Shown here in pieces: positions 932-4,389 of a stretch of DNA of 4,389 nt. The notes beneath the pieces are model-generated. The model did no database searches, was not told the origin of the DNA, and worked only from the letters and a program-made list of their open reading frames with translations. Within the stretch, counting starts at the first letter, position 1, and each line of letters starts with the position of its first letter. The position numbers were made by a program, and so were the translations under genes. Origin of the DNA: a virus (lineage: Duplodnaviria; Heunggongvirae; Uroviricota; Caudoviricetes); the IMG/VR virus record IMGVR_UViG_2657245439_000012; one strand, written 5' to 3'.

Positions 932-957
932 TAAAAAAACCCGCCTGGCGACGGGTG
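932..957 (-). terminator. tR'-like intrinsic terminator downstream of the late promoter
   Basis: Minus-strand RNA ACCCG-UCGCCAGG-CGGGU followed by U7 (plus-strand A-run 932-938); located about 40-65 nt downstream of the predicted pR' start, as in lambdoid pR'-tR' units. The stem is only 5 bp. Confidence 0.55.
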
Positions 958-989
958 TAAAAAATCTTCTAACGTCAGGCATAAAACGC

Positions 990-1031
990 CCATCGTTAGG
1001 GCAAATTTACCACAGATTCGGGAAAAATCAA
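990..1031 (-). promoter_or_regulatory. Late promoter pR'-like with Q-utilisation (qut) / sigma-dependent pause element
   Basis: Minus strand reads TTGATT (-35, 1026-1031), 16-bp spacer, TGgTAAATT (extended -10, hexamer 1004-1009), then TGCCCT and AACGATGGG (992-997). I recall the lambda pR' layout as TAAATT-TGACTC-AACGATGGG, where AACGAT is the -10-like pause inducer. Lies immediately downstream of the Q stop codon (1037-1039). Confidence 0.6.
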
Positions 1032-1036
1032 CAAAG

Positions 1037-2241: not shown

Positions 2242-3291
2242 TTACCCGAGCACGCCGGTTGCAAAGGCGTGATCAAGAAAACGAAAAATTAAATCAACCT
2301 GGGAACCATGCTTTTCTTCGAACGCCAGCGGATCCGCATGAAGCTCGTTGTGATGCTCCCGACACAGCGGTAGCGTGAAAATATCGTGGGATTTTGTTCC
2401 CATTCCGCCCTGACCATGACCAATCAGATGATGAGGATCGTCCGCTGGCTTACCACAACACGCACACGGCTGTGTCTTTACCCAGCGTGTGTATTTCTCA
2501 TTTACCCAGCGGCGACGTTTAGGTCGTTTCATGAAGGATTCCGGAGACTCCGGATCAACGGCAATGCTGACCACCGTCTTTTCCTGTGGTGGGTTCTGTT
2601 GCTGGTGGGTGTGAGGCGGTAGCGCAATATTTTTTGTGCGCTGCTTCAGTATGCTGGTGGCGGTCTGCTCTCCCGGCACGATGTCGCTTTCACGGTACAT
2701 TGAGCGGATTTTTTCCGCACGCCCCCCCAGCGAACGACGTAATACCGCTTCCGGTAGCGCGTCCGCCACCTGATTGCGGACCGCCCACCAGGATAATTCA
2801 GCCAAAGATAATTCACGCTCCTGCGTACCGCTTATTGCGTGACCGATGACGTCAATCATCCATGCTGACAGGTTTTGATGAGCAAGTTGCTCGAGTGATT
2901 CGGATGTCTGGTCACGCAGCTGGTTGTCGCAGTGCCAGCACAACACCATTGCGCCGGTACCATAACGGTGAATGACAGTTTCGCTGTGATGATAATCGCC
3001 GTGTGGCCACTGGCAGGATTTAATATGGCGCAACAGCCAGTCAGACAATGCACCAGCACCACCAGCAGCACGAATCACCCGTGCGTTACTGAAAAACGGC
3101 AGCAATGTTTTGTCTTCCACCAGCGGCTGGCGAACGGCAGGAACGACCCCGGACGGCAGATTACGCATGCTTTTCGGTTCCGGCTCCATCAATACCCGGG
3201 TATTGTGGAATACTGGCATGGATTCACGGCCCGGCTTAACGATCACAAGCCCGAGTTCCGGTACCAGAACAGGTCGAAGTAATACCCGCAC
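2242..3291 (-). CDS. ydfU: YdfU-like prophage protein (DUF968 family) with C-terminal HNH-like Cys/His motif, 349 aa
   Basis: Track ORF; same length as the Qin prophage YdfU as I recall it, and in the same position between Q and rem/hok. C-terminus PCACCGKPADDPHHLIGHGQGG...LPLCREHHNELH looks like a His-Me finger (CxxC...HH...C..HH..H). The start as drawn is GTG 3289-3291 with GGAGG 4 nt upstream; the first in-frame ATG is at 3217-3219, so the N-terminus is uncertain. Confidence 0.75.
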   Translation of the reverse strand: MRVLLRPVLVPELGLVIVKPGRESMPVFHNTRVLMEPEPKSMRNLPSGVVPAVRQPLVEDKTLLPFFSNARVIRAAGGAGALSDWLLRHIKSCQWPHGDYHHSETVIHRYGTGAMVLCWHCDNQLRDQTSESLEQLAHQNLSAWMIDVIGHAISGTQERELSLAELSWWAVRNQVADALPEAVLRRSLGGRAEKIRSMYRESDIVPGEQTATSILKQRTKNIALPPHTHQQQNPPQEKTVVSIAVDPESPESFMKRPKRRRWVNEKYTRWVKTQPCACCGKPADDPHHLIGHGQGGMGTKSHDIFTLPLCREHHNELHADPLAFEEKHGSQVDLIFRFLDHAFATGVLG

Positions 3292-3292
3292 G

Positions 3293-3571
3293 TTACCTCC
3301 AGATGCGTTGCTGGAATGTGCGAGACGGACGCGGTGGGCGTTCAGAGTAAGGAAGCCTGACGGAGATTATCCAGTGACGGTAGTCGAGACTAAGGGCTTT
3401 CTTAACCTCGTATCCGCGCCTGCGGTAACACTGAATTGTCCATTCAGCCTGCTCTTCAGTACATGGAGGGTGTTGGAACCATTCAGACTTGAATGCGTGA
3501 GAATACCGCTCGTGCGTGCAGGCAAGAACGGGCGAATTATCAGAATTGTAATATTTTACGTTGCGTGCCAT
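3293..3571 (-). CDS. Hypothetical prophage protein, 92 aa, Cys-containing
   Basis: Track ORF. ATG 3569-3571 has GGAG 7 nt upstream; its TAA stop (3293-3295) lies 1 nt from the ydfU-like start inside that gene's SD, typical operon packing. No family recognised from sequence alone. Confidence 0.5.
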   Translation of the reverse strand: MARNVKYYNSDNSPVLACTHERYSHAFKSEWFQHPPCTEEQAEWTIQCYRRRGYEVKKALSLDYRHWIISVRLPYSERPPRPSRTFQQRIWR

Positions 3572-3637: not shown

Positions 3638-3889
3638 TTATTCTTCTGCAAAAGCTGAAAAGCCTGCTTTTATTCCGATCTCTTTCAGTGCCTGTAATGA
3701 AGTAACAAACTCACCTTCGCGCAAGATAAATCCGTCTGTCACTCGACCATCCACAAAATTAATTAACGCAGCCCCATTCTTTCGCAAACACATAATGCGG
3801 TAATGACTAACAAGATTTCCATTTTCAACGCACACAGCATAGAGGCCATCTTCACAAAAAATTTTACGCAGTTCTTCGATGTTCATCAT
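3638..3889 (-). CDS. rem: Small prophage protein, 83 aa; probably the Rem homologue, assigned by synteny and length only
   Basis: Track ORF. Tandem ATG ATG start with AAGGA 5 nt upstream; 83 aa and located immediately downstream of hok, matching the rem-hokD arrangement I recall for Qin. The sequence itself was not recognised. Confidence 0.45.
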   Translation of the reverse strand: MMNIEELRKIFCEDGLYAVCVENGNLVSHYRIMCLRKNGAALINFVDGRVTDGFILREGEFVTSLQALKEIGIKAGFSAFAEE

Positions 3890-4005: not shown

Positions 4006-4036
4006 AAAATAAAAACAAAAACCCGCCGAAGCGGGT
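4006..4036 (-). terminator. Rho-independent terminator of the hok transcript
   Basis: Minus-strand RNA ACCCGC-UUCG-GCGGGU (6-bp GC stem, UUCG tetraloop) followed by UUUUUGUUUUUAUUUU; lies about 70 nt downstream of the hok stop. Confidence 0.75.
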
Positions 4037-4076
4037 TAAGTGCGGGTGCGTTGAGGATGCCTGCCACATCAGAGGT

Positions 4077-4098
4077 GGCGAGGGATTTCTCCCTCGCC
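4077..4098 (-). other. Stable stem-loop in the hok 3' UTR (possible fbi / 3'-processing structure)
   Basis: Perfect 9-bp inverted repeat GGCGAGGGA / TCCCTCGCC with a 4-nt loop, beginning 8 nt after the hok stop codon. Hok mRNAs are known to carry 3' fold-back elements; the functional assignment is inference. Confidence 0.4.
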
Positions 4099-4105
4099 GG
4101 GTCTC

Positions 4106-4261
4106 TTACTCCTCAGGTTCGTAAGCTGTGAAGACAGCGACCTCCGTCTGGCCGGTTCGGATTCGTACCTCGCAGAGGTCTTTCCTCGTTACCAGTGCCG
4201 TCACTATGACGGTTAAACAGATGACGATCAGGGCGATTAACATCGCCTTTTGCTGCTTCAT
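4106..4261 (-). CDS. hokD: Hok-family type I toxin (HokD/RelF-like small membrane toxin), 51 aa
   Basis: Translation from the internal ATG (4259-4261) gives MKQQKAMLIALIVICLTVIVTALVTRKDLCEVRIRTGQTEVAVFTAYEPEE, which matches HokD/RelF as I remember it; SD AAGGAG lies 9 nt upstream; stop TAA 4106-4108. Confidence 0.9.
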   Translation of the reverse strand: MKQQKAMLIALIVICLTVIVTALVTRKDLCEVRIRTGQTEVAVFTAYEPEE

Positions 4262-4318
4262 AGCCTGCTTCTCCTTGCCTTCCGGCACGTAAGAGGCTAA
4301 CCTACATGTGTCTAGCAT
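4106..4318 (-). CDS. mok: Mok-like in-frame leader ORF (modulator of killing), 70 aa, overlapping hok
   Basis: Track ORF begins MLDTCRLASYVPEGKEKQA and continues in frame into Hok; this resembles the MokC N-terminus (MLNTCR...KEKRA) as I recall it. GAGG lies 8 nt upstream of the ATG at 4316-4318. Confidence 0.55.
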   Translation of the reverse strand: MLDTCRLASYVPEGKEKQAMKQQKAMLIALIVICLTVIVTALVTRKDLCEVRIRTGQTEVAVFTAYEPEE

Positions 4319-4389
4319 GAAATTGGCCTCAGATTAATGTTAAGCGTCTTGCAGGACGCGTAATGTTAACTGGGGCTTTTCTCTATCTG
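4275..4389 (+). ncRNA. Candidate Sok-like antisense RNA region (promoter within the mok 5' end, transcript antisense to the mok initiation region); truncated by the window edge
   Basis: Expected from hok/sok architecture. Plus strand has a weak TTGCCT (4275-4280), 17-bp spacer, TAACCT (4298-4303), and a GCGTC-TTGCAG-GACGC hairpin at 4344-4359. No clear terminator is visible before the window ends. Confidence 0.25.

Follow-up and report, generated by a model that had tools for sequence, protein, structure and literature searches.

A predicted Q-dependent late promoter cassette of the lambda type, common in Escherichia coli, in a lambdoid prophage

Introduction

The definition and mechanism of the late-gene regulatory cassettes of lambdoid phages have been described (PMC9388147, PMC5001585), and the pR'/qut/6S RNA/tR' cassette of phage lambda is among the known systems closest to the locus reported here. 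Lambda Q, whose family is PF03589, binds a 13-bp site in its Q-binding element (QBE), and during its loading region 4 of sigma is repositioned at the -35-like sequence TTGACT (PMC9388147). This loading mechanism predicts a universal sigma-binding element placed next to a Q-specific element (PMC9388147), and the terminator that follows is overridden by Q (PMC9388147, PMC5001585). The lambda sequence reads TTGACT-17-TAAATT-TGACTC-AACGATGGG, and its promoter starts about 40 nt past the stop codon of Q. The 13-bp Q site lies in the -35/-10 spacer of this promoter. We take the start of the 6S RNA, at 44587, to be the first A of AACGAT, and the U-run of the terminator to end near 44780, which gives a leader of about 194 nt.

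The same logic, namely a Q gene, a constitutive promoter, a sigma-dependent pause, a nearby terminator and the late genes, is found in phage 82 and in phages of the 21/933W type (PMC9388147, PMC7547250), whose Q families (Q82, PF06323, and Q21, PF06530, respectively) are unrelated to the one studied here. The pause element of phage 82 is placed some 9 bp further downstream, and the pause occurs at +25 (PMC5001585). The pR'-tR' leader of Stx phages, 258 nt long, is processed to a 74-nt RNA, StxS, which is linked to a clade of 144-aa Q proteins and not to the 207-aa clade (PMC7547250). It has also been discussed whether toxin output might depend on the type of Q and pR' (PMC6266700, PMC3320398).

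A short-leader form of the lambda-type cassette is already documented by the curated record of phage P22, where P late, qut, the 5' nucleotide of the RNA and t late (tR') are annotated in the same order as the elements described below. The Q protein of P22, gp23, is a short lambda-like Q (207 aa) that goes with lambda's spacer sequence. Long-form Q proteins, of 250-276 aa, are found in phages SfV and HK225 and in the Qin prophage of E. coli K-12 (ydfT/quuQ); the SfV and HK225 records have their late-leader terminators annotated, but not the promoters.

Here we report the analysis of a 4,389-nt stretch of viral DNA (IMG/VR record IMGVR_UViG_2657245439_000012), called the window hereafter. A first-pass annotation, made from the letters alone, had proposed on its minus strand a lambda-like late promoter, a pause element and a short tR' transcript. 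The locus is an uncharacterised member of a textbook kind of cassette, and one which is common in E. coli.

Results

The window covers the nin, Q and late-leader part of a lambdoid prophage, and all its genes are on the minus strand (Table 1). The sok antisense RNA of the hokD locus was recognised with 71 bits. An isrK-like match (4016-4102, minus strand) stayed below threshold, with 25.7 bits against a gathering score of 50; it overlaps a terminator-like hairpin (4037-4020) located between hokD and rem.

Table 1. Features of the window, in the direction of transcription. Numbers with a sign are relative to the predicted start, A997.
Feature	Position	Strand	Remarks
hokD (with sok RNA)	4106-4318	minus	
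sok RNA	4256-4389	minus	
rem	3638-3889	minus	
92-aa ORF	3293-3571	minus	
DUF968 / ydfU-like gene	2242-3291	minus	
rusA	1855-2229	minus	
Q antiterminator gene, 273 aa, lambda-Q family	1037-1858	minus	Pfam PF03589, E 4.7e-50
Q stop codon	1039-1037	minus	
-35 hexamer TTGATT of predicted pR'	1031-1026	minus	From sequence; starts 5 nt after Q stop
16-nt spacer TTTCCCGAATCTGTGG, putative QBE	1025-1010	minus	
Extended -10, TGgTAAATT	1012-1004	minus	From sequence and 9-sequence alignment
-10 hexamer TAAATT, TG two bases upstream	1009-1004	minus	Same hexamer as lambda pR'
Weak -35-like element TTGCCC, -7 to -2	1004-999	minus	Register of lambda TTGACT
Gap TGCCCT	1003-998	minus	
AACGAT, -10-like sigma70-dependent pause element (SDPE), +1 to +6	997-992	minus	
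Predicted 5'-terminal RNA hairpin, +1-4/+24-27 and +7-12/+16-21	997-971	minus	RNAfold
GGG, +7 to +9	991-989	minus	
GGG and predicted pause site near +16/+17 (U17/G18)	991-980	minus	Predicted position
Mosaic module, tR' and ~80 nt of non-coding DNA	960-850	minus	Also in phages with unrelated Q/promoter cassettes
tR' intrinsic terminator, hairpin ACCCGTCGCCAGGCGGGT then T7	956-939, then 938-932	minus	
TerB-family pseudogene, internal stops	437-799	minus	First gene after tR'
Small DUF3927 gene	273-440	minus	
STnc100-like sRNA gene	86-265	minus	Rfam RF02076, 116 bits vs gathering score 47
IS4 insertion end	1-91	minus	99% identical to IS4 ends elsewhere in E. coli
IS4 hairpin and U7	42-8	minus	Directly upstream of transposase ATG
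IS4 transposase ATG	7-5	minus	Positions 7-1 translate to 'MH'

Just downstream of Q, the arrangement TTGATT-16-TGgTAAATT is predicted to be a sigma70-type promoter. This sequence, the TGCCCT gap and the AACGAT element were all present where the first-pass annotation had put them on the minus strand, and its comparison with lambda, in which AACGAT follows the -10 by 6 nt, was borne out: the segment aligns column for column with pR' of lambda and of P22, and the register of -10, 6 nt and AACGATGG is the same in the three sequences. The spacing of 16 bp that had been given is correct between TTGATT and TAAATT, but the distance from TTGATT to the TG is 13 nt. A hairpin followed by U7, expected about 40-65 nt downstream, was found at +42 to +59 (hairpin) and +60 to +66 (U-run) if +1 is A997, and the short tR' transcript that had been announced corresponds to a promoter-proximal tR' and a predicted leader of about 65 nt, a length typical of the family (see below).

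By analogy with lambda and P22, transcription most likely starts at A997. A pause at +16/+17 is likely here, a position deduced from the invariant GGG at +7 to +9 and from U17/G18. The composite motif TAAATT-N6-AACGATGGG occurs a single time in the window, and it was recovered in none of 200 dinucleotide-preserving shuffles, even when 2 mismatches were allowed. A scan for consensus promoters did not list the pR' site, because TTGATT and TAAATT together score 8/12 and the scan needs 9; lambda pR', scored in the same way, reaches only 9/12. The core promoter is weak by consensus and possesses an extended -10 TG, and its position is conserved in 79 loci. When the interval 932-1034 was searched with Rfam, no family was found to cover it, the suhB/mmgR match (20.5 bits, E 0.63) being noise. 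A second terminator-like match, at 1003-987, was rejected as a terminator: its 5' arm is upstream of the predicted start, so that the hairpin would be absent from the RNA.

Next to lambda, the window cassette has the same Q family, the same -10 TAAATT, the same 6-nt gap to the pause element, AACGATGGG at +1 to +9 and a TTG at -7 to -5. It differs by its -35 (TTGATT instead of TTGACT), by its spacer (16 nt instead of 17, with unrelated sequences), by the start of the promoter past the Q stop (5 nt, against about 40 in lambda), by the end of the terminator (+66, against about +194) and by the length of Q (273 aa in the window, including an additional zinc-finger insertion, and 207 aa in lambda). 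As in lambda, the terminator would be overridden by Q. Because the -35-like TTG in front of the pause element is conserved in only some of the clades, the role of TTGCCC (1004-999) as the counterpart of lambda TTGACT is a presumed one. The P22 leader is 59 nt long as measured here, compared to 65 nt in the window; the terminator hairpins of the two are not homologous, and the window has neither the short Q of P22 nor its spacer.

Among the phages with a long-form Q, SfV, Qin and HK225 present the same succession as the window, that is -35, spacer, -10, 6 nt and AACGATGGG, followed by a 5' stem and, at about +55-65, a terminator. HK225 and its relatives have a spacer motif in common with the window, whereas the SfV/Qin clade carries a different one, TTTTCAAAAAATATGGA. 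The hairpin that is the counterpart of tR' is annotated as a terminator in the records of SfV, HK225 and P22. A search of the literature with the motif string and with ydfT/quuQ returned no description of the window allele or of its counterpart in K-12 Qin, nor any test of the SfV, Qin and HK225 promoters. A pR' of the phage 82 type was rejected on two differences, in Q family and in pause-element position: the window Q belongs to PF03589, and its -10-like element is at +1 instead of about +10.

Aligned from one terminus to the other, the Q proteins of the window and of lambda share 32% identity. In an alignment of 19 members of the family, the window Q contains relative to lambda Q an insertion of about 80 aa with extra CxxC pairs, and this long form is that of most members, lambda and P22 being the short ones. 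The insertion, also seen relative to P22 Q, brings two additional CxxC pairs and has a weak match to DnaJ_CXXCXGXG; it may be a second zinc ribbon. Because of this insertion, the DNA contacts of the lambda structure are not simply transferable to the window Q.

The spacer varies with the Q protein. Wherever Q shares 54% identity or more with that of the window (33 loci), the spacer matched at 14-17 of 17 positions (TTTTCCCGAATCTGTGG), and the SfV/Qin-type, SI5-type, L158-type and lambda-type Q proteins go each with a spacer motif of their own. Over the loci, identity between Q proteins and identity between spacers were correlated (Spearman 0.80). A clade-specific spacer beside a shared pause element fits with a Q-specific site placed next to a sigma-specific one, and covariation of the spacer with Q is the signature expected of a QBE, hence the designation of TTTCCCGAATCTGTGG as a putative Q-binding site.

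The generality of this organisation was surveyed in the regions downstream of 99 Q loci, made of 18 phage records, 80 chromosomal loci and the window. The chromosomal loci were taken from a collection with one genome per species, and cover Escherichia, Enterobacter, Kluyvera, Pantoea, Erwinia, Serratia, Xenorhabdus, Providencia, Pectobacterium and other genera; the family was scanned with an 8-sequence alignment as the query, the 19-sequence alignment being too divergent. A -35, 15-18 nt, a -10, 5-7 nt and a -10-like element were found in this order in 79 of the 99 loci, the -35-like hexamers of the relatives at this spacing being TTGATT, TTTACT, TTGCAA, TTGACT and others. The pause element is AACGAT in 55 of these 79 loci, and a variant of it by 1-2 bases, keeping A2 and T6, in the remainder. 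In the 9-sequence alignment, the T, A, A and final T of the -10 and the columns AA..ATGG are invariant. A terminator was present in 77 of the 79 loci, with a median leader length of 64 nt (53-79 nt in 68 of the 77). The short leader is therefore the normal form, and the leader of lambda, of about 194 nt, the exception. Effects of nascent-RNA length on NusA and Q (PMC4914094) were considered and have no bearing on the terminator distance.

In the window, the stem of tR' has 7 bp, of which 5 are GC pairs, with a loop of 4 nt and U7 behind it, so that termination there would give a leader RNA of about 65 nt. Folding of the whole leader with RNAfold gave, both as minimum free energy and as centroid structure, a 5' hairpin followed by the terminator (dG -21.3 kcal/mol, z -3.0 compared to shuffles). 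We analysed this 5' stem further with a custom pairing and permutation script. In 66 unique leaders, the first five transcribed bases have a complement within +17 to +31, mostly +18 to +27, more frequently than other 5-mers, and the mean complement score of the 5-mer decreases from 4.2 at offset 0 to 2.7 at offset 7. Another pair-scoring test, on 68 unique leaders, gave 4.34 observed pairs against a mean of 3.60 (max 3.84) with shuffled downstream sequences; G-U pairs were counted in this test, which blurred the signal.

Variants of the pause element are often accompanied by a matching change in the partner: the 5' arm AACAA faces TTGTT (L152, L156), AATGA faces TCATT (L148, L151), GATGA faces TCATC (L147) and AAGGA faces TTCTT (YeP2). 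This covariation was significant when 5-mers were permuted among the 23 variant leaders (P = 0.0006), and also when a single leader was kept per distinct 5-mer (n=12, P = 0.011). Support for the 5' hairpin is nevertheless moderate, because several variants are uncompensated (L103, L123 and 640R1) and the sequences are related. MAFFT followed by RNAalifold on 34-nt leaders yielded an ungapped alignment and no consensus structure, since loop lengths differ. Altogether, these pairing data suggest a conserved 5'-terminal hairpin in the late leaders of the lambda family. Lambda itself would be included, with the pairing AACGA/UCGUU.

Downstream of tR', close relatives of the window have the TerB-family pseudogene, the DUF3927 gene, a SASA-family esterase, a holin, a lysozyme and a lysis protein, a gene content which fits a late operon. 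The state of pseudogene of TerB is annotated likewise in the closest RefSeq relatives. In the window, IS4 lies about 900 nt downstream of the cassette, where it interrupts the late-leader region of the prophage, and the window then ends; its terminal repeat finishes at 'ggcatta', and the prophage sequence is left at position 91. The insertion took place in the terminator hairpin of the STnc100-like gene, whose 3' arm is missing, and this copy is therefore probably devoid of a terminator of its own. In other relatives, IS3 or IS481 insertions are found nearby. STnc100, a family of prophage sRNAs, is related to the PasD sRNAs (bioRxiv 10.64898/2026.05.13.724894). That the pR'-tR' RNA itself could be PasA or PasC was considered and is unlikely, since pasA and pasD2 most commonly lie further downstream, on either side of the esterase (sialidase) gene (bioRxiv 10.64898/2026.05.13.724894).

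In the first-pass annotation, the late transcript was thought to continue to a terminator at 6-42. That hairpin turned out to be IS4 sequence preceding the transposase ATG, and not phage sequence; in relatives lacking this IS, the operon extends into the esterase, holin, lysozyme and lysis-protein genes. An end of the operon at this place is moreover unsupported, because the Q-modified polymerase is terminator-resistant and expected to ignore it. The IS4 hairpin, a strong one, and its U7 could block transcription that reads into the IS from outside.

Comparison with other phages revealed a mosaic boundary inside the cassette. Homology between the window and many Stx2a phages extends from 960, which is four bases ahead of the terminator stem, down to 850. 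This module is 88-91% identical in many Stx2a, phiP27, cdtI and SfV-type phages; in Stx2_EH2201, it follows a Q of the Q21 family (PF06530) and an unrelated promoter region. As the homology boundary falls at the terminator, we conclude that Q and promoter/qut travel as a unit, and that the terminator belongs to the downstream module. A counterpart of the 850-960 module is present at 1501-1610 of locus L183. No significant structure was detected by an RNA fold test of the region 840-931 (z -0.5), and in some copies the segment past the terminator begins with an ORF of 7-8 codons, of doubtful meaning.

The 112-bp segment from promoter to terminator was found in 1,674 of 5,426 complete E. coli genomes (31%), and was at least 99% identical in 474 complete-genome records; among ten records listed, none has an annotation over it. 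An O157:H7 strain is among the carriers. The full-length Q ORF of the window recurs with 100% identity in many viral contigs. A longer segment of 251 bp, covering the 3' end of Q, tR' and the 80 nt that come next, is 100% identical in phage Stx2_EH1910, where a small ORF, a methylase, tRNAs and stx2AB (stx2a) come after the Q-pR' region.

Discussion

The register, the conservation of the elements and the covariation of the spacer with the Q clade indicate that the locus is very probably the regulatory cassette for the late genes of a lambdoid prophage whose Q antiterminator is of the lambda family, and at the level of sequence its elements are those of an antitermination unit of the Q-lambda type. 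By homology, sigma70 RNA polymerase would start at TTGATT-16-TGgTAAATT, most likely at A997. After synthesis of about 13 nt, region 2 of sigma would rebind the non-template AACGAT at +1 to +6, and the complex would scrunch and pause near +16/+17. Without Q, polymerase is expected to escape from the pause and to terminate at the hairpin and U7 (956-932), releasing the leader of about 65 nt. Q made after induction would bind the clade-specific spacer TTTCCCGAATCTGTGG and load onto the paused complex, and the Q-loaded polymerase would then pass tR' and the terminators beyond it and enter the late region, which in the window copy would consist of the TerB pseudogene, the DUF3927 gene and the STnc100-like sRNA gene, then IS4.

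The 5' hairpin may add a component to this switch. Given how 5'-end-dependent decay works, a plausible role of the hairpin would be to protect the leader and the late mRNA. The hairpin could make the 5' end less accessible to RppH- and RNase E-dependent decay; it could also come into play once the RNA has been threaded through the Q nozzle. A broader proposal would be that +1-+5 is kept complementary to +18-+27 so that a hairpin is borne by every late transcript and leader as a selected part of the switch, the 65-nt RNA of the clade being in addition an abundant Hfq-binding sRNA, constitutive in lysogens. We regard this whole proposal as doubtful.

That the leader of about 65 nt also acts in trans as an Hfq-binding sRNA is, taken by itself, improbable. 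The parallel is with StxS: in Stx1 and Stx2a phages, processing of the RNA made between pR' and tR' yields a functional sRNA that is bound by Hfq (PMC7547250). The window leader ends in a terminator with U7, and terminators with at least 7 T residues are reported to be typical of Hfq-binding sRNAs (PMC5558911). It also has between its two hairpins an A/U-rich, single-stranded linker, AGAAGAUUUUUUACA, and its presence in 31% of complete E. coli genomes would suit such a function. However, the family does not share this linker: in the HK225/Enterobacter clade it is down to 3-7 nt, and its sequence varies by clade. Since it differs in both length and sequence between clades, the leader contains no shared seed, and the interval gave no Rfam match above noise (suhB, E 0.63).

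Rather than a working late switch, the cassette might be a relic, intact in sequence but functionless in a cryptic prophage. The internal stops of the TerB pseudogene in this lineage, the IS4 copy in the STnc100-like gene and the IS3/IS481 insertions near the cassette in other relatives point in this direction. Yet this decay downstream leaves the identity of the cassette unaltered, and a disabling change is visible in none of its elements. The full-length Q ORF, shared without change by many viral contigs, the near-identity of the 112-bp segment in 474 complete-genome records and the 251 bp found unchanged in the genome of a Stx2a-converting phage also argue against a relic, so that we consider this explanation quite improbable. 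It may still be that, in a decaying prophage copy such as this one, the switch no longer drives a productive late programme in its host.

Finally, that the hairpin and U7 are merely the terminator of the early-right (Q) operon, next to fortuitous promoter-like and AACGAT sequences, is hardly credible: the hairpin is indeed only about 80 nt past the Q stop, some phage records annotate nothing but a generic rho-independent terminator and the promoter is below the scan threshold, but comparative data already disfavour this reading, with the composite motif in 0 of 200 shuffles, the same register in 79 loci from many genera (AACGAT in 55), a register identical to that of the experimentally defined pR' of lambda (PMC5001585) and a spacer that covaries with the Q clade.

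As the switch of the preferred reading, a lambda-type late cassette, is itself textbook, the value of the locus lies mainly in annotation and epidemiology, namely its prevalence and its presence upstream of stx2a in one phage. The survey leads to a simple annotation rule: within about 100 nt past a PF03589 gene, TANNNT, 6 nt and AACGATGG, with a terminator at +55 to +70. This rule would locate the late promoters in most Enterobacterales prophages of the PF03589 family. From the spacers, each Q clade also receives a candidate Q-binding sequence, with which the specificity of Q could be swapped experimentally.

Downstream of ydfT/quuQ, the Qin prophage of K-12 MG1655 (L182, 2870-2960) has an unannotated cassette built in the same way, TTGCAT-17-TAAAAT-TTTTTC-AACGATGGG with a 5' stem and a terminator, so that a model strain is available for testing late promoters of this kind.
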